Shown here: piece by piece, positions 19,897 through 36,135 of the stretch | How positions within the stretch are numbered: position 1 is the first letter of the stretch | Layout of the letters: the number at the start of each line of letters is the position of its first letter | From: Solidesulfovibrio sp. | Lineage (GTDB): Bacteria; Desulfobacterota; Desulfovibrionia; Desulfovibrionales; Desulfovibrionaceae | Length of the DNA stretch: 64,000 nt | NCBI RefSeq assembly: GCF_029978005.1 | Contig: NZ_JARKOZ010000123.1 | Location: 3,210-67,209, forward strand | Direction of reading: 5' to 3' | Position numbers and translations under genes: made by a program | Notes under the pieces: generated by a model | Told to the model about the DNA's origin: nothing | The model's database searches: none | Seen by the model: the letters and a program-made list of their open reading frames with translations, nothing else

Positions 19897-20486
19897 TCAA
19901 AGGCCATGGCCGAGGCCGAGCCCCGCACCATCACCCGTTCGCTGATCTTGTAGGAAGTGCCCACGCAGGCCGTGGCCCAGTCGGATTTCACCGGGGCGGC
20001 GGCCATGAAGTAGGCCGGGGCAGTGGTCGAAGTGAGGGCGTCCTTGACCTTGCGGCCCGCCGACGGAGGCCAGATAGTTCTGGATCTGCTGATCGGTGGC
20101 CACGTTCGTCAGCGCAGACACGCCGGAAAGAGCGGGGTCGTTGTCGGAAGCGCGCAGCGGCGCGGAAAAGGCCCCGCCGTTGGCGAAGTTGAAACCGCCG
20201 CCTCCAATGGGCCTGCCGTTCAGGCCGAACCGCGCCGCCAGCATCGTGGAATTCATCACGCCTGGCCCGACGAACGCACCGCTGGCTCCGGCCGCCACGG
20301 CGGCGGCGATTCCGCATCCTGTGTCGCACTGCCTGTCGTATTGTAGCGGAAGTAGCCGCTGTCCAAGGTGCTGTCGCCGAACCCTGCATATTGGTTGAAC
20401 AATCCGGTCGCGCCGGACGACACGGGCCTGCTGAGGACCGCGATAGAAAGGAATGCGACAGCCAGGGCGAAGCGCTTTATTTTCAT
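19897..20486 (-). pseudogene. GDSL/SGNH esterase (EstA/ApeE autotransporter-like), frameshifted and truncated
   Basis: Signal peptide and FGDSTLDSG (block I); after a frameshift, NFANGGA (block II) and DQQIQNYL; no downstream blocks or beta-barrel. Confidence 0.7.
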
Positions 20487-21380
20487 GAGGGCGCTGTCCT
20501 TGGATCACTGTTTGCGAGTGATCTTGCTTCAGAGCCATCATGCGCCCTGATTTGTAACACGCGCTGACTGGATAAATATAAGAACTATCGTGGCACGGCA
20601 AACAGTTATCAGATACGGTCGACTCAAAAGACGGTTCTTTGCGTCATGGATTCGTCTGAAAATCAAGTCTGTTGTTGTCGCCCTGATGCTCCGAATAGAG
20701 TCAAATACGACTTTCGGCTTATTGGTGGGAACTCTCGCCAAGTTCAAGTACGTCAGACATCTTTGTTTCTTGGGGCGTCATAAAGTAAATATACAAAAGG
20801 AAATTTTAGTAGATTTTTTAGAGTAACGATTTGAGTGAGTAAAAAGTTGCTCGACAAGTTGTGCTTGCTATGCCGAGGACTCGATGCATGTTCCAATACT
20901 TGACTTTACTTGAGGTGAATGGAGACTGTCATTGCCAGAACCCATAAAGTAATACTTTTAATCCAAGAAGCAGTATTTCGCTGGCTTGGCCATGCAAGCT
21001 TCACGGGTATTTTCAACGTGGCCCGTGCGACAATCGCAAGAGTCTCTGGAGAATCGTTTTTATGCATCATCAGACAGGGGCTGTCGGCAAATGTCGTCCA
21101 ACATAAAAAATTATTTAGTAAATTCAATATGTAGGAGTGCGCGGAATGGCCGTCCAGGCAGACGGCCGGGGGGGGGGGGCCGCGGGCGCACCGGAAGGGA
21201 TTTCAAGGGGACAGACGGAGTCGGCTGCCCCATTCTTTTTTTGCCTGTGGACAGCGGGGGGCGACATGTCGGCCGGGCCGACGAAAAAGCGGGGGAGCGA
21301 CCTGCGAGAATGACGCACGGTCACCGCTCGTCGGGCAGGGGCCCGGTATGCGGCACCGCGTGGCGAGAGGATGGAGAGGA

Positions 21381-21415
21381 CAAAAGGAGCGCGGATTCGC
21401 ACCGCGCTCCTTTTG
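21381..21415. terminator. Bidirectional intrinsic terminator downstream of the larA-like gene
   Basis: caaaaggagcgcgg-attcgca-ccgcgctccttttg. Confidence 0.8.
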
Positions 21416-21442
21416 CCGAGGAAACCGGCGTCGAAACGGCGT

Positions 21443-22870
21443 TTACTTTTTAAGGTGCAGATGCACGCCCATGCCGCCGGTGAAGCAGTCCGGCGTGCAC
21501 AGGATGCGCGGGTTGGCCCCCACGTGGCGCTTGGCCCGGGCCATGGCCTCCTCGAAGGTGGCGGTGGGGGTGAAGCCCATGCCGCGGGCGAAGCGCGGCT
21601 GCTTGGCCCCGGCCACGTACACGGCGCTGGTGCGCAGGGCGGGCACGCTGCCGCCGCTGATCATCGACATGGCGTGGTAGGGGTGGTAGGTGTTGTAATT
21701 GGAGTACTTGTAGCAGTACTCGGGGTGGGCGGCCAGGGCGTCGGCGTCCTGGGAGGCCAGGAATTCCGCCGGGGTGCAATACTTCTGCAGGGCCTCGTAG
21801 GTCTCCTCGTAGGACGGGAACCAGTTGGCGTTGAACCAGCCGTCGCACACCGACACGGCGATGATGACGCCGCCCTCGCGGAAGGCCCCCCAGCAGCGCG
21901 AGAGCTGGCCGCCGATGGCCAGGCTCATGAGGATGGGGTTGGTGCCCATGCCCGGGCCGTAGTGGAAGTTGCGGGGCACGCCCATGATGAGCACGTCGGC
22001 CGGCTCGGCCATGTCGATGGCGTAGTTGGTGCGTTTTTCCGCCAGGGGCCAGGTGGCCTTTTCGATTTCGCCCAGAAGGCCGGCCTGCACGTCCAGGACC
22101 TGCGCCCTTTTGCCGATGACCGCGTCCACGCCGAAGATCTTCTTGCCGATGCCTTTCTCAATGGCCTCGCCGATGGAGCGGAACTGGTGGCGCTGATGGG
22201 AATGGGGGGAGGCCCCAAGCCAGTCGTCGCGGTGCATGGTCTTGGGGCAGTGGTGGGAACTGATGCAGCGCCAGGTGGTGTGGCCGGTGACGAGCATCTT
22301 GTAGCCGCCGGAAAAGCCGCCGTAGGGGTTGCCGGCGCAGTGCCCGACCACGATGGGGAGATCCGCCTCGGCCAGAAGCCGGCTCACCTGCACGATGTTG
22401 CCCATGGCGTCGCGGCCGAGGTCCACGATGTCCGGGGATTCGGCGTCGTGGTTGAGGAGCCTGTCCGGCCAGAACATGTCCACGATCTTCTTGCCGAGGT
22501 ACCAGTTCCACTCCTCGAGGGTGTTGTGCCGGTGCAGGCCCGGGGCGCACAGCAGGGTGATGTCCTCCAGGCGCACGCCGGCGGCGAGCAGTTCCTCGAC
22601 GATGATGGGGATGGCCACCTTGCGGTGGCACTGCGGCCCGGCTCCGCCCTTGACGCGGTCGGGGAAGCCGATGACCACCTTCTGGCCGGGCTTGGCCAGC
22701 TCGCGCAGGGGCGGCGTGCCCAGGGGGTTGGCCAGGGCCCGTCGCGTGGCCGCGGCCGGGTCCACGGCGGGGGGATCGGTGTCCACTTCGGCCAGACGCA
22801 GCACGGTCGCGCCGTCCGGCAGTTCCACACGCATTTTCGTATCGCCGTAGTCCAACAAAACGTCTTGCAT
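21443..22870 (-). CDS. LarA-superfamily (nickel-pincer lactate racemase-like, DUF2088) protein with atypical active-site motifs
   Basis: LANPLGTPPLRELA, FPDRVKG, APGLHR, NHDA, GFSGGYK, SSHH motifs; 475 aa. Confidence 0.85.
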   Translation of the reverse strand: MQDVLLDYGDTKMRVELPDGATVLRLAEVDTDPPAVDPAAATRRALANPLGTPPLRELAKPGQKVVIGFPDRVKGGAGPQCHRKVAIPIIVEELLAAGVRLEDITLLCAPGLHRHNTLEEWNWYLGKKIVDMFWPDRLLNHDAESPDIVDLGRDAMGNIVQVSRLLAEADLPIVVGHCAGNPYGGFSGGYKMLVTGHTTWRCISSHHCPKTMHRDDWLGASPHSHQRHQFRSIGEAIEKGIGKKIFGVDAVIGKRAQVLDVQAGLLGEIEKATWPLAEKRTNYAIDMAEPADVLIMGVPRNFHYGPGMGTNPILMSLAIGGQLSRCWGAFREGGVIIAVSVCDGWFNANWFPSYEETYEALQKYCTPAEFLASQDADALAAHPEYCYKYSNYNTYHPYHAMSMISGGSVPALRTSAVYVAGAKQPRFARGMGFTPTATFEEAMARAKRHVGANPRILCTPDCFTGGMGVHLHLKK

Positions 22871-22941
22871 GACCAGTCACCTTGGTTTGCGTTGTCCGGC
22901 AAGAAGCCTGCCGATGCCAAAGCGGCGCGCAGGGGCCTGCG

Positions 22942-23694
22942 CTACCACCACTTGATTTTTTCCGTCACGTAGTTGCGGATGGCCACGAAGTCGGGATCGT
23001 CGAAACGCCGCGGCCGCGGCAGGTCGACCACCACCTCCTCCTTGACGGTCGTGGGCTTGGTGGAAAGGATGAGGATGCGCTGGGCCATGTACACGGCCTC
23101 TTCGATGTTGTGGGTGATGAAGACCACGGTGGTGCCCAGCTCCTGCCAGAGGCGGATGACCTCGTCCTCCAGGAAGAAGCGCAGCTTGACGTCCATCTGC
23201 CCGTAGGGCTCGTCCATGAGCAGCAGGTCCGGGTGCATGGCGAAGGCCCGGCCGATGATGATGCGCTGCTCGGAGCTCACGGAGAGCTGGTGGGGGTAGC
23301 GGTCGCGCAGGTCCTGGAGGCCGAGCATCTTGATGATCATCTCCACGCGCTCGTCGATGACGTCCTTGGCCAGCTTCTTGATCTCCAGGCCGAAGCGCAG
23401 GTTTTTTTCCACCGTGAGCCAGGGGAAGGCCGAGGGCTCCTGGAACACGAAGGCCAGGTTGTGCTTTTTCGGGTCGGCGGACTCGCCGTCGATGAAAAGG
23501 TCCCCGCGCGTGGGGCTGTAGATGCGGGTGAGCAGGTTCAGGAAGGTGGTCTTGCCGCAGCCCGTGGGGCCGACCACGCAGACGAACTCCCCCCGCTTGA
23601 TGTTGAAGGAGATGTCGTCCAGGACGTGCAGGCGGCCGAAGTACTTGGTCAGGTTCCTGACTTCGACCTTGATGTCGCTGTCGGGGGTGCTCAT
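22942..23694 (-). CDS. NitT/TauT-family ABC ATPase with degenerate signature motif
   Basis: Walker A GPTGCGKT, Q-loop FQE, signature LSVSSEQR, Walker B LLLMDE, H-loop ITH. Confidence 0.92.
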   Translation of the reverse strand: MSTPDSDIKVEVRNLTKYFGRLHVLDDISFNIKRGEFVCVVGPTGCGKTTFLNLLTRIYSPTRGDLFIDGESADPKKHNLAFVFQEPSAFPWLTVEKNLRFGLEIKKLAKDVIDERVEMIIKMLGLQDLRDRYPHQLSVSSEQRIIIGRAFAMHPDLLLMDEPYGQMDVKLRFFLEDEVIRLWQELGTTVVFITHNIEEAVYMAQRILILSTKPTTVKEEVVVDLPRPRRFDDPDFVAIRNYVTEKIKWW

Positions 23695-23778
23695 GCGGCG
23701 CTCCATGGAAGACGACGCGCCTTGGCGCGCCTGATCGTTATGGCGAAGGTCTGTCCGGGGCATGGCGTTCTCGCCTCC

Positions 23779-24540
23779 CTAGATCGCCAGATCCATGTTG
23801 TCGGCGATCTTCTTGCGGATGGCCAAAAAGTCCGGGTCCGTCATGTGGCGCGGGCGCGGCAGGCCGATCTCGTAGATCTCCTTGATGTGGGCCGGCCCGT
23901 TGGAGAGCAGCACGATGCGGTCGCCGAGGTAGACGGCTTCCTCGATGTTGTTGGTCACGAAGAGCACGGTGCGCTTTTCCTGCTGCCAGATGCGCTGGAT
24001 CTCGTCCTCCATGGCGTAGCGCGTCTGGGCGTCGAGCTGGCCGAAGGGCTCGTCCATGAGCAGGATCTCCGGATTGCCGGTGTAGGCGCGGGCGATGCCC
24101 ACGCGCTGCTTCATGCCGCCCGAGAGCTCGAACGGGTAGCTCTTCTCGAAGCCCTGCAGGCCGACCAGGTCGATGTACTTCTGGGCTTCGGCGCGCCAGA
24201 CGGCCTTGTCCGTGCCGGCGATCTGCGGGCCGAAGGCCACGTTGTCGAGGACGGTCTTCCAGGGCATGAGCGCCAGCTTCTGGAAGACCATGGCGATGCG
24301 GGGGTCGCTGCCCTCGATGCGGCAGGCGTCGAGAAAGACCCCGCCGTCGATGGGGCGTTCCAGGCCGCCGACGATGTTGAGCAGCACGCTCTTGCCGCAC
24401 TGTCCGGGGCCCAGGATGACGAGGAACTCGTTGTCGAAGACGTCGAGGCTGACGTCCACCACGGCGTCGCGCACCGCGTTGCCGACCACGTAGCTCTGGC
24501 AGATGTGGCGCAGGCTCAGTTTGACTGTTTTCGCGTCCAT
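23779..24540 (-). CDS. NitT/TauT-family ABC ATPase with degenerate H-loop
   Basis: Walker A GPGQCGKS, signature LSGGMKQR, Walker B ILLMDE, H-loop reads VTNN (His to Asn). Confidence 0.92.
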   Translation of the reverse strand: MDAKTVKLSLRHICQSYVVGNAVRDAVVDVSLDVFDNEFLVILGPGQCGKSVLLNIVGGLERPIDGGVFLDACRIEGSDPRIAMVFQKLALMPWKTVLDNVAFGPQIAGTDKAVWRAEAQKYIDLVGLQGFEKSYPFELSGGMKQRVGIARAYTGNPEILLMDEPFGQLDAQTRYAMEDEIQRIWQQEKRTVLFVTNNIEEAVYLGDRIVLLSNGPAHIKEIYEIGLPRPRHMTDPDFLAIRKKIADNMDLAI

Positions 24541-25328
24541 GGGCACAGCAGCAGCTCCGTAAGTTGGGTGATGATCGCGAGCAGGGCTCCGACCAGACCG
24601 ATGAAGATCATGGAGAGCAGCACCAGCGGCATGTCCAGGGAGTCCATGCCCCGGATGATGAGAAAGCCCACGCCGGATTTGCCGCCGAGCATCTCGGCCG
24701 CGAGCACCACCATCCAGGCCGCGCTGGTGGAGGTGCGGATGCCGGCGAAGATGGCGTCCAGGGCCGAGGGAATGGCGATCTTGAAGAGTTTCTGGCGGGC
24801 GTTGGCGTTGAACATGGTGCCCACGTCCAGGTAGATCTTCTGGACGAAGCGCATGCCGGCGTGGGTGTTGACCACGATGGCCGGGATGGAGCCGATGAAG
24901 ACCAGCAGGATCTTGGGGAATTCCCCCAGCCCGAACCAGATGGTGATCAGCGGGATCCAGGCCAGGGGCGGCACCGAGCGGAAGGCGGTGAAAAGCGGCG
25001 TGAGCAGGGAGTCGCTTTTCCTGTACCAGCCGGTCAGGATGCCGAAGGCGATGCCGAACAGCCAGGCGCAGATCAGGGCGATGCACACCCGTTGCAGGCT
25101 GGCCCAGACGTGGCCGAAGATCGTGAGCCCCTTGATGGGGTGCCGCATGATCAGGAGGAACCGGTCCCAGGTGGCCCCGGGCGAGGGGAACCGGGCGTTC
25201 TCGCCCTGGGAGACGTACACCCAAAGCGCCAGCAAAAGCCCCAGGGACAGGAAGGGGAGCACCCTGTGGATGCGCTTCCACAGGAGCTCGCGGCGTTCCA
25301 TGTCGCTCATCACGATTGGCTGGTTCAT
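24516..25328 (-). CDS. NitT/TauT-family ABC permease
   Basis: PPLAWIPLITIWFG, EAA-like loop, LAAEMLGGKSGVG. Confidence 0.92.
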   Translation of the reverse strand: MNQPIVMSDMERRELLWKRIHRVLPFLSLGLLLALWVYVSQGENARFPSPGATWDRFLLIMRHPIKGLTIFGHVWASLQRVCIALICAWLFGIAFGILTGWYRKSDSLLTPLFTAFRSVPPLAWIPLITIWFGLGEFPKILLVFIGSIPAIVVNTHAGMRFVQKIYLDVGTMFNANARQKLFKIAIPSALDAIFAGIRTSTSAAWMVVLAAEMLGGKSGVGFLIIRGMDSLDMPLVLLSMIFIGLVGALLAIITQLTELLLCPWTRKQSN

Positions 25329-26167
25329 TGCTTCTTCCACCCCAGGACCCTGTTTTCCACGACGTTGAGCAGCGCCACGAACAGGGTGCCGATGACGCCG
25401 ATGACCGCGATGCCGAGGATGACGATGTCCGCCCGGGCGAACTGGCGGCCCATGATGATCATGTAGCCAAGGCCGCTGTCCGCCGCGAGCATCTCCGCCG
25501 CGACCAGGGTCGCCCAGGAGTTGCCGAGCGCCACGCGGATGCCGGCGAAGACCATGGTCATGGCCGACGGGCAGCCCACCTTCCAGAAGATGGTGAAGTT
25601 GGACGCGCCGCAGGTCTTGGCCACGTTGATAAGCACGGGGTTCGTCTGGCGGATGCCGGTGTAGGCGTTGATCAGGCACGGCACGAAGGCGGCGAAGAAC
25701 ACGATGAAGGCCTTGGCCTTGAGGTCGATGCCGAGCCAGACGATGGTCAGGGGAATCCAGGACACGGGCGGGATGGGCCGGATGATCTCGAAGACCGGGC
25801 GCATGAAGCTGTCGAAGGCCCGGTACCAGCCCATGAGCAGCCCCAGGGGGATGCCGATGACGATGGCCAGGCCGAACCCCGTGAGGGCGACGGTCAGGCT
25901 CGACAGGATGTTGACCCCAAGCACCGCGCCGTCGGGGCTCGGATCGACCAGCTTGACGAAGAACAGGCCGACGATCTCGAGGGGCGAGGCCAGGAAGCGT
26001 TCCGAGAGCAGCCCGGAGGCGGCAATGGCCTGCCAGAGGAGCAGGAAGCCCAGGATGCCGAGGACGGACAGCGCGGTCGCCGTGCGTTTGTCCCGTTTCT
26101 TCTGGCGCTTCACCAGGGCGACGCGTTCGGCTTCGCTGAGCCGTGCCGTGGACGGTGGTTGTGTCAT
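25325..26167 (-). CDS. NitT/TauT-family ABC permease
   Basis: IRPIPPVSWIPL, VAAEMLAADSGLG. Confidence 0.92.
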   Translation of the reverse strand: MTQPPSTARLSEAERVALVKRQKKRDKRTATALSVLGILGFLLLWQAIAASGLLSERFLASPLEIVGLFFVKLVDPSPDGAVLGVNILSSLTVALTGFGLAIVIGIPLGLLMGWYRAFDSFMRPVFEIIRPIPPVSWIPLTIVWLGIDLKAKAFIVFFAAFVPCLINAYTGIRQTNPVLINVAKTCGASNFTIFWKVGCPSAMTMVFAGIRVALGNSWATLVAAEMLAADSGLGYMIIMGRQFARADIVILGIAVIGVIGTLFVALLNVVENRVLGWKKQ

Positions 26168-26299
26168 GGCCGTATTGCCCCCTGCGCCTCTCCCGCGCCT
26201 AGTCGCGGGAGAGGCCGGATGGTTGGGTGGACGCGTGGTCGCCGGGCGACCCTTCGGCGGCGGGGACGCGCGATGCGCCCCCTGCCGGGCCCTTCGCGG

Positions 26300-27445
26300 C
26301 TACTGCGCGGCGAGCCCCTGCGCCTGCATCACCTGCTTGGCCGCCTCGGCGATGGCCGGGTCGATCAGGTGGTTCTTGATGATCTTCTCCTTGTCCTCCC
26401 CGGAGTACTTGTTCTGGGAGATGAAGAAGTCCATGCCGGCGAAGATCTCGCGCTCGGCCTGGGTGAGGGGGACGCCCTTGTAGGGGCCGCTCTCGTCCGT
26501 GGTGGCCACGGTCATGATGTCGATGGACTTTTTGAGCGGCGGCCCGGCGAACCACTCCATGACGCGCTGGGCGATGCTCGGCGTGCAGGCGATGCCCTCG
26601 TCCTGGCAGCTTTCCAGGAAGTGCTGGGCGGCTTTTTTGAGGTTGGCGTCGTTGGCCTTGATCCACTGGCAGGTGAGGTGGAAGACGAGGTAGGCGGTGG
26701 TGAGCAGTTCCTTCTTCTCTTTCAGGGACGTCTGGGTGGCCAGGGTGCCGCAGGGGGCCACCACATCGAGGTTGCGGCCGTCGGCGATGCGCACGAAGCC
26801 CTTGTCGTCGGCGGTGAAGGCGATGGCGTTCCACACGGCCAGGCCGTCGCCCTGCTTGCCCATGAAGCCGGTCAGGGCGCTGGCCACGTCCATGTTGATG
26901 GATTTGACGTCCTTAAGCCCCAGGCCGACGTTTTTGAGCGCCGCCACCAGGGTGGCCTGGGCGGTGGTGCCCAGGGGATAGAGCCAGGTCGTGCCCTTCC
27001 AGTTGTCCGGGTTCTTCATGTCCTTGGACAGGGGGCTGCCCGGGCGCACGAAAAGCGCCAGGTTCTTTTCGTAGTCCGAGATGCCGATGACCCGGATGTC
27101 GTAGCCGACCATGCCGGCCAAAAGGCCGCCCAGGCCGCAGCCGGCGATGTCCCAGTTGGCGTTGGCCTCCATCATGGCCGGGCCGTTGGTGAAGGTCTCG
27201 TACTTGAGCTCGATGTTGAGCTCCTTGAAGAAGCCTTCCTTGTCGGCGATGTAGAAGGGGATGGACAAGGGCGAACCGGCGAAGAAGCCAACCCGCAGCA
27301 CCTGCTTTTTGGCGAAGGGCTTGAGGCCGAAGGTGGTTTTGGCGCCTTCCGCCGCGGGGTCGGCGGCAAAGGCGCCGGCGCAGGCCCAGGTCAGCGTCAG
27401 CATGCCGCACAGAACCATGGTCAGGAAACGGTGTGTTCTTGTCAT
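26300..27445 (-). CDS. ABC substrate-binding protein (SsuA/TauA/NMT1-like)
   Basis: Signal peptide; FYIADKEGFFKELNIELKYETFTNGPAMMEA; GTTAQ. Confidence 0.88.
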   Translation of the reverse strand: MTRTHRFLTMVLCGMLTLTWACAGAFAADPAAEGAKTTFGLKPFAKKQVLRVGFFAGSPLSIPFYIADKEGFFKELNIELKYETFTNGPAMMEANANWDIAGCGLGGLLAGMVGYDIRVIGISDYEKNLALFVRPGSPLSKDMKNPDNWKGTTWLYPLGTTAQATLVAALKNVGLGLKDVKSINMDVASALTGFMGKQGDGLAVWNAIAFTADDKGFVRIADGRNLDVVAPCGTLATQTSLKEKKELLTTAYLVFHLTCQWIKANDANLKKAAQHFLESCQDEGIACTPSIAQRVMEWFAGPPLKKSIDIMTVATTDESGPYKGVPLTQAEREIFAGMDFFISQNKYSGEDKEKIIKNHLIDPAIAEAAKQVMQAQGLAAQ

Positions 27446-27556
27446 CGTTGCCTCCTTCTTCGGGTTCGCTCGTCGTGATGGCGCGCCGACAGGCCCCGCG
27501 TCCGGGGATGCGCCGTTCGTTGCCATTGCCAGACGTCGCCCGCTGCGGCGGGCCGT

Positions 27557-29515
27557 TTATCCGTCGCTTCCGGGGGCCATGGCCCCGCTCATGGCGTTGC
27601 CCTCGCAGTCCCTGGGGGCGGGCACGCCGAGGATGGCGGCCAGGGTCGGGGCGATGTCGATGATGTTGGCCGGGATGTCGCGCTCGCCCGGGGCCACGCC
27701 CGGGCCGTGGGCGACGAGCAGGCAGTGCATGTCCGGCTCGTGGGGCAGGGCGGTGTGCACGCCCGTGAAATGGCGGCCGAGCACGGCCGGCTCGAACATC
27801 TCCGGGCTTTCCACGATGCGCTCGGTGCCGTCGCGGTACTTTACCGCCGCCCGGTAGACGAAGGGGCAGTTCATGTAGCGGCGGCGGATGGCGAAGAGCA
27901 CGTCGCCCACGCGCTCGAAGCCCTTGCGCTCGTAGACGCCGAACTGGGAGGCCAGCTGGCGCGGCAGGGCGACCTCCACCACGCGCTCGCCGGTGTCCGG
28001 GTCGCGCCAGGCGAGCAGGGCGTCGATGATCTCGTTTTGCACCTTCTCGTAATCCGCCGGATCGACCGAGCCATGGGGATCGCGGCCGCGCAGGTTGACG
28101 AAGAGGTGGGCGTGGCAGGGCTCCAGGGGGAAGCACTTGGTCCTGCTCCAGTCCACGACCATCTCCCCGGTGGCGGGGTCGATCTCGTAGGCGAGCAGTC
28201 CCGCCTCCTTGAGGAACTTCTTCATGTAGGGGCTCGAGGCCAGGGCGGAGAAGCCGTGGTCCGAGACCAGGACCACCAGGGTCTCGTCGAGGTCCACGTC
28301 CTTGAGGATGCGGCCCACGGCGTCGTCCACCTGGGCGTAGCCCTGGCGTAGGACATCGGTCCAATACTCCAGGCGCTCGGGGTCGTAGTGGGGCGAGGTG
28401 GGGTCCAGGGCCCCGTACATGACGTGCTGCAGGTGGTCCACGGTGCCGACCCAGGCGTAGACGGAGTCGATGTCGGCGCGCCCGAGGGCGTACTTCGTGG
28501 CCCCGGCCCACCAGTCGGCCAGCTGGCGCAGCTGGTCCATGTAGGTGGGCAGCTCCACCCAGCCGTCCATGAACGACCAGGGGTCGTCCACCTCGATGTA
28601 GGGGCCGGCCATGGCCTCGACCTCGGGCGTGATGGACGGGGGCAGGGTGTAGGCCTCGGCGCTGTTGACGGCGCTGGCGTACAGGCGAAAGGCTTTGGCG
28701 TCCGGGTCCAGGGCGGCCAGGTGGAGGCGGAAGCGGCCCCGGCGGGGCTTGCCGTCCTTGTCCGTGAAATCCTCTTCGATCCAGCCGCTCCAGCCGCCCG
28801 GGGACAGCACGGCCACGGCCGCGGCCGCGTCCTTGGCCGGGGCGATGGTGGCCGTGTCGTAGCCGCCGGTCGCGCCGGCCGTGAGGGCGACCTGGTAGCG
28901 CGGCCCGTTGGCGTAGACCGGGGGCACGTCGATGGCGAATTCCAGGGGGGGCAGGGCGCTCGGGGGAAGGTTCGTCCAGCCCGCCGCCGGCGCGGGCGCG
29001 ACCTGCACGGCCCGGCCGGGCACCTGGTCGCAGGGGAGCTTTTCCGTGGAGAACACGGCGCTGCCGGCCACGTCCCAAAGCGGCATGTAGAAATAGCGGA
29101 AGGGAGGGTTCAGCGAGGCGGCGATCTGGATGCCGTGCTCCTCGGCCAGGTTCATGGGCCAGGTGACGGGCCAGTTGACCAGGGCCACCCGGCGGCCCAC
29201 GGCGTTCTCGCTTTCCCAGAGGGTCTCGGCCAGGAGCAGGCGCTTGTCGAAGGAGGTCTGCCAGGAGTCGAGGGCCTCGCCGGGCATGCGAACCATGAGG
29301 CTCGGGATGCCGCAGGTGCCGGGGCCGGCCCCGGTGACGATGGCGCACCAGGCCGCCGCGGTGAGCGGCGGAAAGGTGGGGATGACGCGCGTGCTGAAGC
29401 CGCCTTGCATGAGGCGCGCGATGTTGGGCAGGCTTCCTTCCTTGGCGAACCGCTTGACGTAATCGGGCAGGGCGGCGTCGACGCCGAGCATGAGGAGTTT
29501 TTTCGCCCGGGCCAT
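27557..29515 (-). CDS. Alkaline phosphatase superfamily protein (type I phosphodiesterase/nucleotide pyrophosphatase-like)
   Basis: LGVDAA, PPLTAAAW (Thr nucleophile candidate), VDHLQH, VSDHG, C-terminal His motifs; no signal peptide. Confidence 0.85.
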   Translation of the reverse strand: MARAKKLLMLGVDAALPDYVKRFAKEGSLPNIARLMQGGFSTRVIPTFPPLTAAAWCAIVTGAGPGTCGIPSLMVRMPGEALDSWQTSFDKRLLLAETLWESENAVGRRVALVNWPVTWPMNLAEEHGIQIAASLNPPFRYFYMPLWDVAGSAVFSTEKLPCDQVPGRAVQVAPAPAAGWTNLPPSALPPLEFAIDVPPVYANGPRYQVALTAGATGGYDTATIAPAKDAAAAVAVLSPGGWSGWIEEDFTDKDGKPRRGRFRLHLAALDPDAKAFRLYASAVNSAEAYTLPPSITPEVEAMAGPYIEVDDPWSFMDGWVELPTYMDQLRQLADWWAGATKYALGRADIDSVYAWVGTVDHLQHVMYGALDPTSPHYDPERLEYWTDVLRQGYAQVDDAVGRILKDVDLDETLVVLVSDHGFSALASSPYMKKFLKEAGLLAYEIDPATGEMVVDWSRTKCFPLEPCHAHLFVNLRGRDPHGSVDPADYEKVQNEIIDALLAWRDPDTGERVVEVALPRQLASQFGVYERKGFERVGDVLFAIRRRYMNCPFVYRAAVKYRDGTERIVESPEMFEPAVLGRHFTGVHTALPHEPDMHCLLVAHGPGVAPGERDIPANIIDIAPTLAAILGVPAPRDCEGNAMSGAMAPGSDG

Positions 29516-29516
29516 G

Positions 29517-30401
29517 CTAGTGTCCTCCCTTCCAGAGGTTGCCCATGCATTTCCACATGACGGAGGTGTCCTCGCCGCCGAAGCCCTGGGCGCAGGAGGT
29601 CCGGTTGAGGAAGTCCACGGCGCGGCCGAGAAGCGGCGGCGCTCCGGCCCCTTCGGCCATCTCCACGCCCAGGCGGACGTCCTTGGCCAAAAGGGCCACG
29701 GTGAAGGTGGGGTCGTCGTAGCGCTCGTCGCTCACGCGCTGGCCGAGTTCGCGGAAGAGGTTGCTGACGGTGCCGGCCTGGCTGGCGGTGATGACGTCGT
29801 AGAGCCGGTTCGGGGCGACGCCGACCTTCTCGGCCACGGCCATCATCTCGGCGGTCATGGCGTTGATGGCGCCGAACATCATCTGGTTGAGGAGCTTGAC
29901 CTTGTGGCCGGCGCCGCTGTCGCCCATGTGCACGACGTGGGCGGCGACGAGGCGAAGCAGCGGCTCGACCCGGGCGCAGGCCTCGGCGTCGCCGCCCACG
30001 GGTAGGGCCCATTTGCCGATGGTGGCGGGGCGGCCGAGCACCGGGGCGTCCAGGTAGGCCACCTCCCACTCCAGGGCGGCCTCGGCCATGGCCCGGGTGG
30101 TTTCCGGGGCGCTCGTGCACATGTCGACGATCACGGTTCCGGGCGCGGCCGCTTCCAGCAGGCCGCCCGTGCCGAGCACGCAGGCGGCGATCTCCGCCGG
30201 CCCCGGCAGGAACAGGATGATGCAGCCGCTGGCCCGGGCCAGGGCCTCCAGGCTCTCGTGCATGGTCACGCCGAGTGCCGCGGCCTTGGCCACGCAGGGG
30301 GCGAAGGCGTCGTAGCCGTGGACGGCCAGGCCGTGTTCCAGGAAGGTCGCGGCGACAGCGCGCCCCATGACTCCGGTGCCGACAATGCCTACGGTTTTCA
30401 T
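29517..30401 (-). CDS. NAD(P)-dependent beta-hydroxyacid dehydrogenase (3-hydroxyisobutyrate DH family)
   Basis: GTGVMG Rossmann motif, DMCT, DAPVLG, GAGHKVKLLNQ, LLAKDV. Confidence 0.9.
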   Translation of the reverse strand: MKTVGIVGTGVMGRAVAATFLEHGLAVHGYDAFAPCVAKAAALGVTMHESLEALARASGCIILFLPGPAEIAACVLGTGGLLEAAAPGTVIVDMCTSAPETTRAMAEAALEWEVAYLDAPVLGRPATIGKWALPVGGDAEACARVEPLLRLVAAHVVHMGDSGAGHKVKLLNQMMFGAINAMTAEMMAVAEKVGVAPNRLYDVITASQAGTVSNLFRELGQRVSDERYDDPTFTVALLAKDVRLGVEMAEGAGAPPLLGRAVDFLNRTSCAQGFGGEDTSVMWKCMGNLWKGGH

Positions 30402-30482
30402 AGCGATCCTCTGTGCTCCATCGTCGCCGGCGAACGTGCCGGCCCTGCGCCCGACGCCCCGCCTTCCCCACGGCGCGCCGGA

Positions 30483-31496
30483 CTATGCCTGGCTGCAGGA
30501 CTTGCGCAGCATCAGCTGGGTATCCAGACACAACCTCCGTGGCACGCCGTCGCCGGATTCGATCATGTCCATGAGCAGGCTCACGGCGAGATGGCCGATA
30601 TCCCAGCTCGGGACGCGCACCGTGGTCAGGGGAGGGGACGTGTAGTTGGTGAATTCGATGTCGTCGAAGCCCATGAGGGAAATGTCCTCGGGCACTCGCA
30701 AGCCGCGCTCCCGGACGGCGGCCATGGCGCCGATGGCCATGAAGTCGCTGGCGGCGAACACGGCCGTGGGGGGCTTGGGCAGGCGCAGCAGGCGGGACAT
30801 GGCCTCCTTGCCGTTGAGCATGGTGGGATGGCGCTCGATGACAAGCGCGGGATCGCAGGGGATGCCGCGCGCCTCCAGGGCCGCCGCGTAGCCGTCGTAG
30901 CGCCGCCTGGCCCGCAGGATGCCCGAGCGCGGGCCGACGATGAGGCCGACGCGGCGGTGTCCGAGTTCCAGCAGGTAGTCGGTGGCCTCGAAGGCGGCCT
31001 GGTAGTTGTCGATGCCCACGTAGCTCAAGGGGACGGTTTCGGGCAGGATTTCCCAGGCGACCAGGCAATGCAGGCCCTTTTCGGCCATGGACAGGATGAG
31101 CTCCTCGTTGGCCTGGCAGTAGCCGGTGAGGATGACGCCGGCCATGCGGCGCTCCAGGCATTTGTGCAGCAGCACGGCTTCGATTTCAGGATCGTAGCGG
31201 GTGTTGCTGACCATGACGGGGAAGCCGCGTTCGTAGGCGTATTCCTCGATGGCCCCCACGGTGCTGGCGAAGACGGTGCCGCCGGTGGTGGGGATGAACA
31301 CGCCGATGACCGAGGATTTCCGCCGGGAGAGGTCGGCGGCGGCGGCGTTGTAAATGTAGTTGTTTTCGCGGATGATGCGTTCGATGTTCTCCCGGGTCGC
31401 CTTGCTGACGAGGTGGGGGGAGTGCAGTGCCCGGGAGACGGTGGCCGGCGAGACTCCTGCCATCTGGGCGACGTCCTGGATGGTGATCTGCGCCAT
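30483..31496 (-). CDS. LacI-family transcriptional regulator
   Basis: ITIQDVAQMAGVSPATVSRAL HTH, YIYNAAAADL hinge, VGIDN, SDFMAIG, GFDD, PPLTTV. Confidence 0.95.
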   Translation of the reverse strand: MAQITIQDVAQMAGVSPATVSRALHSPHLVSKATRENIERIIRENNYIYNAAAADLSRRKSSVIGVFIPTTGGTVFASTVGAIEEYAYERGFPVMVSNTRYDPEIEAVLLHKCLERRMAGVILTGYCQANEELILSMAEKGLHCLVAWEILPETVPLSYVGIDNYQAAFEATDYLLELGHRRVGLIVGPRSGILRARRRYDGYAAALEARGIPCDPALVIERHPTMLNGKEAMSRLLRLPKPPTAVFAASDFMAIGAMAAVRERGLRVPEDISLMGFDDIEFTNYTSPPLTTVRVPSWDIGHLAVSLLMDMIESGDGVPRRLCLDTQLMLRKSCSQA

Positions 31497-31597
31497 GTGA
31501 CTCCCTGTGCCTCGTTGTCGGCATGGGCTGGCCGGCGCGTGTGCGGCGGCGTATTTCCCATGCGGCCTTGCTGACGTTGCCGGAAGAACGCATTGAA

Positions 31598-31611
31598 TGA
31601 AACCGATTTCA
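31598..31611. promoter_or_regulatory. LacI-type operator 1
   Basis: TGAAACCGATTTCA fits TGNAANCGNTTNCA. Confidence 0.7.
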
Positions 31612-31860
31612 TCCAGCCCGGACGAATTGTCAAGAAAAAGCACGCAAACACCTGAGTTCATACGAAATTTATAAAAGTATCTCTTTCATGTCACGTTTTC
31701 TTTTGGTAATCATGTTTTAGACATGCCTGTTGCACAAATAATGGTGAAATGCCTTTCCGGTCGGCCGGCGACCGGCCAACTGCGCCTGGCGGGGCGAGCA
31801 TGGCCGAGAGACCGGCATCCGGGGGATGCGGGCCCTTGACAGGGGCCGGCCGTTGCGGAA

Positions 31861-31874
31861 TGAAAGCGATTGCA
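31861..31874. promoter_or_regulatory. LacI-type operator 2
   Basis: TGAAAGCGATTGCA fits TGNAANCGNTTNCA; just upstream of the TauE gene. Confidence 0.65.
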
Positions 31875-31905
31875 GTGACGGTCGGAGCAATGACGGCTCC
31901 GGGAA

Positions 31906-32676
31906 ATGCCAGCCAGGAGGCGGACCATGTGGCTTTTGGCGGCGACCGTGCTGGTCGTCGGCGTGCTGACCGGCCTGACCGGCGTGGGCGGCATCCTGGT
32001 CATCCCCGTCCTGCGGAGCGCCGCCGGGCTTTCCGTGCAGGCCGCCATGGCGACCGCCTTGTGCAGTTTCTTCTTCGTGGGGGCCGTGGCGGTCTGGCTG
32101 CAGCAGCGGCGTCAGGCCATAGACTGGGCTCCGGCCCTGCCCCTGGCCGCGAGCGCCGCCGTGGCCAGCCCGCTCGGGGCCGTGGCCAACGCCTACGCCC
32201 CGGTCGCCCTGTTGCAGCTGGTGCTGTCGCTGTTGATCGTCTTTGCCGGGACTTCGGCGCTTTTTCCGCCCAAGGCCGGCGCGCTGCTTCGGTTTGACCC
32301 GGCGAGCAGGCGGCACAAGGCGATCATGGTCGGCATCGGCTCGGTGGTGGGTTTCTTCTCGGGGCTGACCGGCGCGGGCGGCCCGGTCCTGTCGATCCCC
32401 ATCATGGTGGCCCTGGGCTTTCCCCCCCTGCTTTCCATCGCCGCCGGCCAGGTGTTGCAGGTGGCCGTCGCGGCCTGCGGCACACTTGGCAACCTGTTCT
32501 ACGGCGTGGTCGATTTCCCCGTGGTCGCCTGGATCACGGTGGTGCAGATCCTCGGGCTCGTCGTCGGCATCCGCCTGTTCCCCCTGGTGTCGCCCCAGCG
32601 CCTGCGCCGCCTGGTCGCCTCCATCTGCCTGCTCGTGGGGGCGTATGGTTGCTTGCGCGCGCTCCTCTCATCGTAG
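31906..32676 (+). CDS. TauE/SafE family (sulfite/organosulfonate exporter-like) membrane protein
   Basis: Duplicated GVLTGLTGVGG / GFFSGLTGAGG motifs, about 8 TM segments; the start may be 31927. Confidence 0.88.
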   Translation: MPARRRTMWLLAATVLVVGVLTGLTGVGGILVIPVLRSAAGLSVQAAMATALCSFFFVGAVAVWLQQRRQAIDWAPALPLAASAAVASPLGAVANAYAPVALLQLVLSLLIVFAGTSALFPPKAGALLRFDPASRRHKAIMVGIGSVVGFFSGLTGAGGPVLSIPIMVALGFPPLLSIAAGQVLQVAVAACGTLGNLFYGVVDFPVVAWITVVQILGLVVGIRLFPLVSPQRLRRLVASICLLVGAYGCLRALLSS

Positions 32677-32875
32677 CACGGTCGCGCCAGGCCGCCAGGC
32701 GCGCGGGTGCGGATGGCCCTGAGATGGTGCCGGCAGGTGGGACAGGTTGACGGCGCGGTTGGCAACCTGTCGAAAAAGGCCGTGAGCTGCCCGAAAACGC
32801 GAAATCGCCCTCGCGATTGCCCTGGCAAGAGAAGATTGCCGCGCCGGAGCTTTTCCGCGGCATGTCGTCCGTGGG

Positions 32876-33300
32876 TTATTTGGTCTGGAAAAATTGTTGG
32901 CGCGCCGCGTCGCTGTCCGGTATCGGCATGACGCCGGTCTTGCGCGCCGTTTCATACGCCGCCGCCAACTCCTTCTCGCCGACCGAGGCCGCCTCCTCGA
33001 AAGTGGAATCCTCAAGCATGGTGGTTTCGAGATACAATTGCCGCTTGCCAGCGGGGTCGAGCGAGACGCCGACGAGCATGTGCCCGGGCAACAGGACCAG
33101 CGACGTTTCCAGGCCGATCTTGGCGAATACTGAGGCAAGCAGGCAACTCCCCTCCACGCAGTTGGCCTGCCGGCCTCCCAGGGCCTCGCTGATGAAGCGC
33201 ACGTTTTGCACCCAGACGCCGTTGGGCTCCACCGACGGCGTGGGCAGATGCGAATAGCGTATGCCGCGCCGTCGCGCCGAGGTCGGCCATGAATGCGCCA
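32876..33300 (-). pseudogene. Fragment of a transglutaminase-like (Cys-His) domain protein
   Basis: GIRYS...QNVRFISEAL..RQANCVEGSCLLASV...LLPGHMLVG...YLETT; upstream part is degraded and abuts the IS relic. Confidence 0.5.
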
Positions 33301-33689
33301 ACGCCTCCGGGTCGGAGGCTCCCATGTTCGGCGTTGCGGCGAAGCGGTTTCCTGGCCGGTCCGTCGCCCCTCGTCGTAACCATCGCGCAGTCTGCCCTTC
33401 TGTCGCGCCCATGCGGCGCGACCCACGCTCCCCCTCCCTGCAGCGGCTCCAGCATGCCGCGCCGCATCGGCGCAGGGCCGTGTCCCTTGCATGTCGCGCG
33501 ACAGGCGTTTTCCTGGGTCGCCGACGCATCGACGCCATTTTCCCAAGGAGAATCACCGTATGAGACGAGGCATTTCGACGATGTGCATTCTGGCCCTGAC
33601 CCGGAAGAGGCCCGGTTCGGTCGGACAGGTTGGCGGCGAGGTTTAGCTATGGTCCCGGTGGACGCCCATGCCGCCTTGAAGGCCGTTTG

Positions 33690-34602
33690 GGAGAGGGGCC
33701 GAAAACGGTGTAAACCCCCCTGTTGACGTTTCAGCAGAAGTAGTCCTTCAACCTGTCCTGGAAGGAGACCGAAAGCTGGGCCATGATCTCCGACCGGTTC
33801 CTCGTTCTCACGGTCCATCGCTTCGAGGCCTTGGTGACTGCGAGATGGAGCGCCTTGAACAGGGCGATATCGGTCGGAAAGACGCTTTTGCCCTTCATGG
33901 TCTTTCTCGCCCGGCTGTTGCGGCTCTCAATGGAATTGGTGGCGTCGATCAGCCGTCTCAGAACATCAGGATACTTGAAGAGAGTGGCCAGTCGTCCCTC
34001 TTTCGCTTCCTGGACATGATCACATGCGGGTATTTCCTGCCCCCACGTTTCCTCGAATTGGGCCAGAGCCATGAGGCCTGCGTCCTCCGTGGGAGCCGTG
34101 TAGATCGAGCGCAGGCAAATGCAACCTCCTTGCGTTCCTCCAGGTCGATGCCCGCCACCAGGGAGGCGGCCACGTTCTTGACCCGGCCATCCCGTCGGAA
34201 CTCGAGGAACAGCGCGTCCATGAACACGATGGCGTACACCGGCTCCTACGGCCGGTTCGGCCATTCCTTGGCCTTGTCGATGACGGCGTCGGTGATCCGA
34301 CTGACCGTCTCGGGCGAAATGTCGTGGTTGTAGATTCCCTTGGCCTCGTGCTGGTTATCAGCGATGCTCATCCCCTTGGCATACATGGAAAGGATGCGCT
34401 TCTCGAAGCCGGTCATCCCGGCTCCCGGAGCCGTCTCGACCACGCCCTTGATCATCGAACGGAGAACGCCATTGAGGTCCTCCTGGCTGGTGATCTCTCC
34501 CCCGAGCATCATCCTGGCAAGCTTGTCACGGTTGAGCAGCACGAAAAGCTGCCGGGACTTTCGCCCATTAGCGGATGCTTACACGGATTTGGTTACAGAC
34601 TC
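33690..34602 (-). mobile_element. IS256-family insertion sequence relic (internally deleted, frameshifted)
   Basis: Transposase fragments ILSMYAKGMS...ISPETVSRITDAV..KAKEWPNRP, YAIVFMDA, IYTAPT, TNSIESRN...FPT; imperfect terminal IRs ending in GTGTAA (gagtctgtaaccaaatccgtgtaa; ggagaggggccgaaaacggtgtaa). Confidence 0.85.
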
Positions 34603-34863
34603 TGCCAGCTATGTCTCGTATACATCCCCTTTCGGCAGGCGTTGGTGGCAGTATCCCGGAGTTTCCCCCTATTTCTGGAATACAATTGATGTCATCCTGG
34701 ATCGAGCCGGCGATACGGATAGCCCTCATGTGCTCTTCAATCCATGCTGGTCGTTCCATCGTCAGTCTGCTAGTAAGTCCGAGGGCAATAAAGAAAATTG
34801 TGTTAGTCTGGAGAGCATTTTTCGAAACATCGTTTATGTGACGCCATGGTAAAGTTTTGGAAG

Positions 34864-36135
34864 CTATACCTCGTTATATTGTAATTGAATGTCACGAATC
34901 ACGACTCCCAGGATGCGATTGTCTGTTGAACATGGATCGATCTCCGAGGGAATGAAAGTTGAGTCGCAGGACAACTCGAAGGTTGTCGTCTCACCATCTC
35001 GTGTTATTCCTTCCAAAGGAATGCTTAGAGAGTATTCTCCGTTTCCAGAGAAATTGTAATTTGCCAACAGCCTTCCATTGCTGTGAATAGTTATTGCTAG
35101 CGGCATGTCGATAGGGCGCGCGTGCATAATAGAAAAGTGAATGGTATTGAAGTGACATTTCTTTTTTACGACTATGATGCAGCGCGTGCTTGTCCAGCCG
35201 TCGTTCGTTACATCGACAGTCAGAAAATCAGAGTTCAATGCCAGGCGGCGATCTTTCCGAAGGATGCTCTTGATGGCGGCTCTTTCTTTTTTGTCATAAT
35301 AGCGCATGGCTTTTTTGATTAAGCCGAGTGCCTTTTGTTTTGTATAGAATTCTCTTGTTTGTTTTTGTTTTTCAAGTGTTTCTTCAATATAAGAAACTAT
35401 CCAATCCACTGGAGTGTTTGAGAAGTGACGGTTCACAACCGCCATGCTTTCTAAAAAAACAAGTTCTCGCTGGGCAACAGTCTTGCAGTCGTCATGCAGA
35501 CGGGAGAGCGCCAAACATTTCGGCATGTAGCCTATGCGGTCGGGAAAGGTTTTGAAGGCACGGATCCAATAATCATAGTCCATAGCTGTGACGAGACTGG
35601 GGTCCAGCAAACCTATCTCTTGGATGATGTCGGAACGAAAAAAAACAGCCGGCTGACAGAGGAAGCATCCATTGCGCAGGGCATATGCTTCCCCGGGCGG
35701 GCGGACTGGGTAGGCTCCGAGCGCCAAGCCTGCTTCATTGATCCACATCGCATCGCCGTAGACCATGATGTGGTCAGGATTCGTCGAAAAATAGGCAACA
35801 ATTTGCGATATGGCACCAGGCAATAAGATGTCATCCGAATTCAACCAACACAGGATGGACCCCTTGGCCGTGCAAAAACCTTGATTTATCGCCATGGCCT
35901 GCCCGCCATCCGGCTGAGATGTCCAGCGAAATATTTTGGGCCATGGAGCTTCTGTGTGCGATAGAATTTCTATGGATTGATCGGTTGAGCCGCCATCCAT
36001 GACAATATGCTCTATCAAGCTATAGTTTTGGCTTAGTACGCTTTCTATAGTTTGGTCTATATATTCGCCTTGGTTAAATGAAGGCGTGACAACTGAAACA
36101 AGTGGTCTGTTAGGAATAAGTGTCAGCATTTTCAT
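34864..36135 (-). CDS. Glycosyltransferase family 2 with C-terminal extension (AT-richer, probably acquired)
   Basis: VSVVTPSFNQGEYI, DGGSTD, AINQGF, WLNSDD, CQPAVFF, MDYDYW. Confidence 0.9.
   Translation of the reverse strand: MKMLTLIPNRPLVSVVTPSFNQGEYIDQTIESVLSQNYSLIEHIVMDGGSTDQSIEILSHTEAPWPKIFRWTSQPDGGQAMAINQGFCTAKGSILCWLNSDDILLPGAISQIVAYFSTNPDHIMVYGDAMWINEAGLALGAYPVRPPGEAYALRNGCFLCQPAVFFRSDIIQEIGLLDPSLVTAMDYDYWIRAFKTFPDRIGYMPKCLALSRLHDDCKTVAQRELVFLESMAVVNRHFSNTPVDWIVSYIEETLEKQKQTREFYTKQKALGLIKKAMRYYDKKERAAIKSILRKDRRLALNSDFLTVDVTNDGWTSTRCIIVVKKKCHFNTIHFSIMHARPIDMPLAITIHSNGRLLANYNFSGNGEYSLSIPLEGITRDGETTTFELSCDSTFIPSEIDPCSTDNRILGVVIRDIQLQYNEV

Follow-up and report, generated by a model that had tools for sequence, protein, structure and literature searches.

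The canonical LarA is a 2-hydroxyacid racemase/epimerase with two catalytic histidines (His108 and His174 in L. plantarum). A subfamily with a single catalytic histidine is known from the structures of LarA(Sp) from Streptococcus plurextorum and LarA(Bw) from Blautia wexlerae, which did not racemise lactate in vitro, showed an unidentified ligand and were suggested to act in "carbohydrate metabolism" (Gatreddi et al. 2025, PMC12611868). A 2026 study of nickel-pincer aldo-keto reductases still calls the function of this subfamily unknown and suggests hydride transfer (PMC13524815). Here we analysed a window of 64,000 nucleotides from Solidesulfovibrio sp. (assembly GCF_029978005.1, contig NZ_JARKOZ010000123.1, positions 3,210 to 67,209) that encodes a homologue of these proteins within a ten-gene cluster. 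The published enzymes are encoded among glycolysis-like genes with a TIM-like partner, whereas the homologue in the window is accompanied by an alkaline phosphatase (AlkP) superfamily hydrolase of the NPP type and a beta-hydroxyacid dehydrogenase, without a TIM-like gene.

Other described pathways resemble the cluster in part. As in Ugp/GlpQ glycerophosphodiester uptake, where a small phosphodiester is taken up by a binding-protein-dependent importer, reaches an esterase in the cytoplasm and controls the system as its substrate, the cluster combines an importer with a putative esterase, and some of its versions use a CUT1-type ABC importer, the family of UgpB. It differs in having an AlkP/NPP-type rather than a GDPD esterase, an extra dehydrogenase and nickel-pincer nucleotide (NPN) enzyme, and LacI instead of Pho control. 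L-threonate and D-erythronate are reportedly catabolised through LtnD, DenD, OtnI, OtnK and OtnC, a scheme said to have been described by Zhang et al. in 2016. An LtnD-like dehydrogenase in the window, a DenD-like short-chain dehydrogenase (SDR) in Desulfobacterota versions and carboxylate-type importers in some lineages recall that scheme, whereas the scores fall far below the curated cut-offs, the clusters lack OtnI and OtnC and no DUF1537 kinase was found in the genome. Sulfoglycolysis and the pathways for 2,3-dihydroxypropanesulfonate (DHPS) and sulfolactate share with the cluster a member of the beta-hydroxyacid dehydrogenase family (YihU), a TauE-family permease and sulfonate-type or IseP-like binding proteins; the cluster has none of their desulfonating or sulfosugar enzymes and carries an AlkP-type enzyme that is absent from them. 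The statement of an earlier note on this DNA, that it knew of no described pathway with this combination of genes, agrees with the literature searched. Because a three-enzyme core of hydrolase, dehydrogenase and LarA homologue stays together in at least five phyla, we conclude that the cluster marks an undescribed breakdown pathway.

Loci related to the cluster were gathered through homologues of the hydrolase, and adjacency was scored by tblastn and by the collection's own gene calls. The genes for the three enzymes are adjacent in 16 of the 17 loci with enough flanking sequence, which span Desulfobacterota, Clostridia, Halanaerobiales, Spirochaetota and Armatimonadota, and their order is rearranged. 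These loci are the window, Solidesulfovibrio sp. DCME, five Desulfobacterota metagenome-assembled genomes (MAGs), an unassigned 1.1-Mb metagenome contig (L043), Halanaerobium polyolivorans, an Armatimonadota MAG, Muriventricola aceti, four Clostridia MAGs and a Sphaerochaeta MAG. The sole exception (L042) encodes the hydrolase beside PfkB kinases, a CUT1 binding protein and an AP_endonuc_2 protein, without LarA or dehydrogenase. Regulators vary between the loci and include LacI, ROK and GntR-UTRA or GntR-PBP fusion proteins. Cofactor genes come after two of the clusters, larB and larC in Halanaerobium and larC in one Clostridiales locus. HAD phosphatases are encoded in three loci (Halanaerobium, Sphaerochaeta and a Lachnospiraceae MAG), and those of Halanaerobium and Sphaerochaeta score as phosphoglycolate-phosphatase-like. 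At least two of the Desulfobacterota MAGs (L025 and L026) encode an SDR whose best model is D-erythronate dehydrogenase, below its cut-off.

The earlier note had named separation of the gene set in other genomes as grounds for giving up its reading, and the three enzyme genes are in fact kept together. The importer and TauE, which it had listed with the other genes, proved replaceable: the importer is swapped in other phyla and TauE is an accessory. Comparison of the loci thus reduces the conserved core to the AlkP-type hydrolase, the dehydrogenase and the LarA homologue, and the pattern resembles a catabolic enzyme module that would recruit whichever importer each lineage offers.

In the window the cluster forms a single unit (21382-32666). 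Pfam and NCBIfam scans recovered all ten genes that had been named from the sequence, and gene starts were corrected using ribosome-binding sites and homology. On the minus strand the order is lacI, dehydrogenase, AlkP/NPP enzyme, solute-binding protein (SBP), permease 1, permease 2, ATPase A, ATPase B and LarA homologue, and tauE diverges from lacI. The features are as follows, with positions counted in the window.

21388-21403, minus strand: terminator-like hairpin and T-run, 40 nt past the LarA stop and inside the block shared with DCME; likely the operon end
21443-22870, minus strand: LarA homologue, 475 aa (Lar_N, 121.5 bits, cut-off 23.3)
22942-23763, minus strand: ABC importer ATPase B (ABC_tran; alternative start at 23694)
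23779-24540, minus strand: ABC importer ATPase A, 253 aa (ABC_tran, within an over-long open reading frame)
24516-25328, minus strand: ABC importer permease 2 (BPD_transp_1)
25325-26167, minus strand: ABC importer permease 1, TauC/SsuC-like (BPD_transp_1; TauC-like matches below cut-off)
26300-27445, minus strand: SBP of the NMT1/SsuA family, 381 aa (NMT1, 32.8 bits, cut-off 20.5)
27557-29515, minus strand: AlkP-superfamily enzyme of the NPP branch, 652 aa (Pfam Phosphodiest)
29517-30401, minus strand: enzyme of the beta-hydroxyacid dehydrogenase family, 294 aa (NAD_binding_2 and NAD_binding_11)
30483-31496, minus strand: LacI-family repressor, 337 aa (LacI helix-turn-helix and Peripla_BP_3; GGGAG ribosome-binding site)
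31598-31611: candidate operator O1 (TGAAACCGATTTCA), about 100 nt upstream of lacI and downstream of the promoter-like site
31666-31694, minus strand: sigma-70-like promoter candidate for lacI and the operon (consensus match alone)
31861-31874: candidate operator O2 (TGAAAGCGATTGCA), 32-53 nt upstream of the tauE start
31906-32676, plus strand: anion permease of the TauE/SafE family (TauE, 118 bits, cut-off 32.6; possible start at 31927)

The genes had been described as tightly packed. This holds only in part: for the dehydrogenase and AlkP genes, which are 1 nt apart, for the permease genes, which abut or overlap and of which permease 2 overlaps ATPase A by 25 nt, and for the two ATPase genes, which are separated by 15 nt; the remaining intergenic gaps in the operon measure 71-132 nt.

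Over its entire length the LarA homologue matches PDB entries 9Q2U and 9Q3K at an E-value of 1e-116 (residues 6-474) and 9Q3J at 7.5e-108. All residues of the published active site are kept (D71, K74, H113, N181, K191, H207, H303, Y304 and H399). K191, which makes the thioamide link to the cofactor, aligns with Lys195 of LarA(Sp), and H207, the fourth nickel ligand, aligns with His211. The catalytic H113 is present and the position of the second catalytic histidine is occupied by Asn181, while H303, Y304 and H399 correspond to the substrate-side His/Tyr/His. LarA(Sp) and LarA(Bw) have the same Asn in place of the second His, the same cofactor Lys and nickel-ligand His, and the same substrate-side residues. 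The protein is therefore assigned to the single-histidine (His to Asn) subfamily and is predicted to be an NPN enzyme. A canonical two-histidine racemase/epimerase was rejected on account of Asn181 and of racemase equivalog models that score far below their cut-offs.

Stereo-inversion of a hydroxyacid, which the earlier note had assigned to this enzyme, is an assumption, because the second catalytic histidine is missing and the subfamily was inactive on lactate in vitro. UDP-galactose 4-epimerase needs only one base, since its oxo-intermediate rotates, and epimerisation by the LarA homologue with a single base would by analogy still be feasible.

A larC-larE-larB operon lies on another contig (C72) of the same genome, each gene scoring above its NCBIfam cut-off, and the LarA homologue is the only Lar_N protein above the cut-off in this genome. 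A weak second Lar_N match of 21 bits, below the cut-off, occurs at C113:11358-11534 inside a 583-aa open frame. Directly upstream of larC-larE-larB on C72, an aldo-keto reductase (AKR) fused to a 4Fe-4S dicluster domain is encoded (L004:4264-5472, plus strand). A similar AKR-ferredoxin gene (L016:20747-21760) is found near the end of the Muriventricola locus, about 0.9 kb past tauE with one small open reading frame between. Some AKRs that adjoin lar genes use the nickel-pincer cofactor (PMC13524815), and by analogy the AKR-4Fe-4S protein beside larC-larE-larB may be a second client enzyme of this cofactor.

Relatives of the LarA homologue also occur in other company. A representative of the Firmicutes branch (P0245, from clustering at 50%) is 43% identical to the window protein, and its gut-type contig (L038:3212-13471) encodes a PFK, a TIM-family protein, LarA, LacI, a class II aldolase, TauE and an NMT1-type SBP with two permeases. 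In Consotaella (L037:7214-12568), a 70%-identical LarA is paired with a TIM-like gene and larCEB, without AlkP or dehydrogenase, and the pair adjoins an L-arabinonate dehydratase, an HpcH aldolase and a Tct importer. The TIM-like proteins of these two loci are 44% identical to each other, and this TIM-like gene is absent from the loci that carry the three-enzyme core and from the genome of the window. The LarA subfamily thus appears to have at least two alternative sets of partners, a TIM-like protein or the AlkP-type hydrolase with the dehydrogenase. Judged from these gene neighbourhoods, TauE seems to track the LarA enzyme rather than the hydrolase.

The hydrolase has no signal peptide and its N-terminus begins directly at the first metal-binding strand, so it is predicted to be cytoplasmic. 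Residues D13, T52, D360, H364, D419, H420 and H587 do not vary among 22 homologues that share 52-84% identity. T52, D419, H420 and H587 align directly to the nucleophile and ligands of Xanthomonas NPP in HMMER, and the equivalence of D360 and H364 to NPP ligands was established by motif, not by the HMMER alignment. The AlphaFold model (pLDDT 88) has NPP, autotaxin and PafA as its nearest folds in Foldseek, with a probability of 1.0 and an E-value of 2e-16 to 2GSN. It shares the core fold (TM 0.73 on target), the Thr nucleophile and the six metal ligands with this NPP from Xanthomonas axonopodis. In contrast to 2GSN, to which it is about 13% identical, the window enzyme is 270 residues longer, carries a beta-rich insertion of about 140 residues (about residues 150-290), is predicted to be cytoplasmic rather than secreted and has further invariant motifs, for example EPCHAH at 465-470. 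A type I sulfatase was considered and rejected: the nucleophile region FPPLTAAAW lacks the formylglycine motif Cys/Ser-x-Pro-x-Arg, and the partial match to Sulfatase (21.5 bits) is below the cut-off.

Fold and ligands point to a phosphoryl-transfer design that could act on a monoester, a diester or, as in PhnA, a C-P bond, and not to sulfo-ester chemistry. Of the cytoplasmic ester hydrolysis proposed in the earlier note, the location and the complete AlkP/NPP ligand set are thus retained and the sulfo-ester option is not. Sediments, sludge and guts harbour hundreds of relatives at 55-60% identity, all of them lacking a functional name, and a protein atlas search returned only the hydrolase's own family. 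Paralogues of about 30% identity are encoded in 39 of 200 sampled Desulfovibrionaceae genomes. Their genes are conserved beside those for a BCCT (betaine/choline/carnitine) transporter, a 226-aa protein without a Pfam match and a PAS sigma-54 activator, as at L044:8073-9962. This placement hints that small esters brought in from outside are substrates of the wider family. The paralogues could hydrolyse an imported ester of a quaternary amine, for example phosphocholine or glycerophosphocholine, within the cytoplasm.

The dehydrogenase falls below every curated equivalog cut-off in NCBIfam. Its best model is tartronate-semialdehyde reductase (TSAR; 150 bits, cut-off 341), followed by L-threonate dehydrogenase (134 bits, cut-off 350) and sulfolactaldehyde reductase (110 bits, cut-off 348); HIBADH is likewise below its cut-off, and the best PDB match is 1VPD. 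The LtnD/DenD-like dehydrogenases prompted consideration of the canonical tetronate pathway, which was rejected when no DUF1537 kinase was found in the genome at 96% completeness.

The SBP gene starts at an ATG behind an AAGGAGG ribosome-binding site, its product begins with a Sec signal peptide with cleavage after AFA, and the predicted export of this protein agrees with what had been read from the sequence before. It scores far below the cut-off of the SsuA family (SsuA_fam 54.6 bits, cut-off 163.5), and its best PDB matches, SsuA and NrtA, are both weak and give no clue to the ligand. Unlike SsuABC, the importer has two differing permeases and two differing ATPases: ATPases A and B are 38-41% identical to each other and the permeases 27%. 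The same heteromeric NMT1-type ABC system is found in Clostridia and Sphaerochaeta (SBP 45-50% and ATPases 66-77% identical), and orthologues of ATPase B are 72-88% identical in the DCME, Muriventricola, Clostridiales MAG and Sphaerochaeta loci. Since the divergent ATPase and permease pairs are both kept in Clostridia and Sphaerochaeta, the importer is predicted to be an obligate heteromer.

Other lineages encode other importers beside the same enzymes. Halanaerobium has a TRAP system and the Armatimonadota locus a CUT1 ABC, whereas the Desulfobacterota MAGs encode a second, simpler NMT1 system, to which at least two (L025 and L026) add a CUT1 system, with the SBP of L025 encoded at 6733-8133. 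The CUT1 binding proteins are closest to binders of sorbitol and other polyols, and a neighbouring SBP has a weak Phosphonate-bd match. In the Armatimonadota locus, a 387-aa protein with a TM1506 domain and a weak match to ECF S-components, for which no NCBIfam match was obtained, is encoded between the dehydrogenase and the CUT1 genes (L008:5614-6777). The TRAP binding protein of Halanaerobium (DctP, L007:12065-13117) is closest to the isethionate binder IseP (E-value 4e-40); compared with IseP it keeps Arg156, Arg177, Ser95 and Asn98 and has the changes Y153F, N217V, D77G and H244Y (PMC11668362). With four contact residues changed and the anion-binding arginines kept, isethionate itself is unlikely as its ligand. 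TRAP binding proteins also bind glycerol phosphate and diglycerol phosphate (PMC11668362), so resemblance to IseP does not fix the type of anion. The "sulfonate-type" importer had been taken as a clue to the substrate; because TRAP or CUT1 systems replace it in other phyla, the importer type says little about a sulfonate.

The tauE gene is 84% identical in DCME. TauE-family genes are present in three lineages with the three-enzyme core and in the LarA/TIM-type loci, and those of Muriventricola and Clostridiales are unrelated to the TauE of the window. The Halanaerobium version carries a SulP gene. From this distribution TauE appears to be a recurrent accessory rather than a core member.

The 392-aa open reading frame of lacI was over-extended and start correction reduced it to 337 aa. 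The palindrome TGNAANCGNTTNCA has exactly two matches in the window against 0.07 expected, both of them in the stretch that separates lacI from tauE. The corresponding stretch of DCME contains this pair of sites as well. LacI orthologues are 49-52% identical within the Desulfobacterota versions of the cluster, and four Desulfobacterota MAGs with an orthologous LacI (49-51% identity) have one or two such sites directly upstream of the first gene of the operon. Since the sites are enriched and placed equivalently in relatives, we regard the two palindromes, which had been proposed as LacI operators, as real candidates, and tauE as a probable member of the regulon in this lineage. The operator-bearing promoter before the lacI-led operon and the second operator before tauE also favour the earlier view of one co-regulated unit.

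Gene content, catalytic residues, operator sites, co-conservation and cofactor genes were observed directly, and from them we infer the substrate, the chemistry of each enzyme, and the direction and order of the steps. The cluster could encode a pathway that is induced by its substrate, a small anionic organophosphate with hydroxyl groups, a tentative reading to which we give a little less than an even chance; the likeliest substrates are phosphoesters or phosphodiesters of polyols or of C3-C5 sugar acids. LacI would bind the two 14-bp palindromes, one before lacI and the operon and one before tauE, and would presumably be released by the substrate or an intermediate. The exported SBP would pass a small, anionic, hydroxyl-rich solute to the heteromeric ABC importer, and in other lineages TRAP or sugar-type ABC importers would feed the same core enzymes. 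The 652-aa NPP-type enzyme would then remove or cleave the phosphoryl group using Thr52 and a two-metal centre, and the dehydrogenase would oxidise (or reduce) the hydroxyl next to the acid group. The LarA homologue, with its cofactor supplied by larC-larE-larB, could perform a redox-neutral hydride shuttle, either epimerisation by rotation of an oxo-intermediate or another isomerisation, that brings the carbon skeleton into central metabolism. TauE would export an anionic by-product.

The NPP-type fold with its full set of ligands, the HAD phosphatases, the polyol-type CUT1 binding proteins, the DenD-like SDR, the sugar-type regulators (ROK, LacI and GntR) and the PfkB-kinase context of the AlkP orthologue at L042 all favour the organophosphate. 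So do the adjacency of the core genes in 16 of 17 loci, the enriched and conserved operators, the hydrolase paralogues beside BCCT importers, the missing signal peptide of the hydrolase, the intact LarA active site and the larC, larE and larB genes. Several points weigh against it. The searches named no substrate and no enzyme of the core has a characterised close relative, the dehydrogenase with its scores below every curated cut-off included. To our knowledge, NMT1/SsuA-type binding proteins do not carry phosphoesters. A pathway that releases phosphate leaves the recurrent TauE and the SulP of Halanaerobium unexplained. Three enzymes alone would have to lead all the way to central metabolites, and we know of no natural phosphoester that fits perfectly. 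The role of the LarA homologue in this scheme is a guess.

TauE and SulP would find an explanation if the substrate were a C3 organosulfonate of the DHPS, sulfolactate or sulfolactaldehyde type, from which sulfite or sulfate would be exported. The dehydrogenase, whose family includes sulfolactaldehyde reductase, would then act on a hydroxysulfonate like YihU or SlcC, the LarA homologue on the 2-hydroxy centre, and the AlkP-type enzyme would carry out a novel sulfur step, for example hydrolysis of a beta-oxo-sulfonate such as sulfopyruvate in the manner of PhnA. The SBP, permeases and ATPases of SsuA/TauABC type, tauE under a LacI operator, further TauE genes in two other loci with the three-enzyme core and the IseP-like Halanaerobium protein with its four conserved residues are consistent with such a substrate, and the L038 cassette of LarA, PFK, class II aldolase, TIM-like protein, TauE and NMT1-type ABC resembles sulfo-glycolysis. 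The two-metal, Thr-nucleophile NPP core, however, is a phosphoryl-transfer design, and we know of no sulfonate pathway that uses it. Neither the ten genes nor the 16 related loci include a desulfonating enzyme (SuyAB, Xsc or the glycyl-radical lyases HpsG/IslA) or a sulfosugar enzyme, four IseP contacts are changed, TauE is missing from most loci with the core, and HAD phosphatases and polyol-type CUT1 importers better suit phosphoesters. We therefore consider a C3 sulfonate unlikely. An undescribed hydrolytic desulfonation, in which the LarA homologue and the dehydrogenase convert a compound such as sulfolactate or DHPS to a beta-oxo-sulfonate such as sulfopyruvate, the C-S bond is cleaved by the NPP-type enzyme as PhnA cleaves C-P and the sulfur oxyanion is exported by TauE/SulP or respired by the sulfate reducer, is distinctly improbable.

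PhnA is an NPP-like member of the AlkP superfamily that has a Thr nucleophile and needs a beta-carbonyl. The dehydrogenase could create such a carbonyl in a hydroxy-phosphonate whose configuration is set by the LarA homologue, and the AlkP-type enzyme would cleave the C-P bond as PhnA does, leading from a 2-hydroxy-3-phosphono acid or a related compound to pyruvate or acetate and phosphate. Three enzymes would suffice to reach a central metabolite here, NMT1-type SBPs are related to phosphonate binders and the hydrolase has the fold of the NPP branch; yet no PhnA model or PDB entry is among the sequence matches of the hydrolase, such compounds are rare in nature while the three-enzyme core is common in sediments, sludge and guts, control by LacI is not that of the Pho regulon, and TauE again goes unexplained. 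We rate this reading as quite improbable. That the genes do not serve one pathway at all, their adjacency reflecting co-transfer of loosely related genes or TauE being unrelated to the substrate, would fit the variation of TauE and the importers among lineages, the AlkP orthologue at L042 without LarA or dehydrogenase and the Consotaella LarA without either partner. Sulfite inhibits LarA, and TauE could in this case keep sulfite off the sulfite-sensitive nickel-pincer cofactor in a sulfate reducer. Such an explanation is very improbable given that the three genes stand side by side in 16 of 17 loci from five phyla despite rearranged order, and that the Desulfobacterota versions place all genes, including lacI, behind one operator-bearing promoter.

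The cluster provides a genomic context for the single-histidine LarA subfamily, which has solved structures and no known reaction (PMC12611868). Within the subfamily, one branch is firmly tied to two partner enzymes and high-affinity importers, which narrows the search to small anionic hydroxy compounds, and the three-enzyme core has cultured carriers in Halanaerobium polyolivorans Z-7514 and Muriventricola aceti H5_61. A large uncharacterised family of 650-aa cytoplasmic NPP-type enzymes comes to light as well. Should the substrate turn out to be an organophosphate, sulfonate or phosphonate that is abundant, the pathway would be relevant to how phosphorus or sulfur is cycled in anoxic habitats. 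Hydrolytic desulfonation, if true, would add a new way of desulfonation and give the single-histidine LarA subfamily its first physiological role.

Nucleotide homology to the Solidesulfovibrio sp. DCME chromosome spans positions 21382-32666 of the window and ends sharply at both borders. In DCME the cluster is flanked by Tex and an RND pump, unlike the flanks in the window, and none of the 200 sampled genomes of the same family carries an orthologue of the hydrolase, only the paralogues of about 30% identity. For these reasons, the 11.3-kb unit including tauE appears to behave as a transferable block between differing flanks in the two related genomes. An Rfam scan of positions 20000-34000 detected no riboswitch or other RNA family. 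In a look-up of sequencing runs, the DNA occurs in wastewater, sludge and groundwater metagenomes, and no informative transcriptome of a culture was among the runs. On the tauE side the unit is directly flanked by a fragment of a Mutator-family transposase (33731-34264, minus strand) and by a fall in G+C content to 0.47-0.55 (34000-37000), and a GT2 glycosyltransferase gene is located at 34864-36135.

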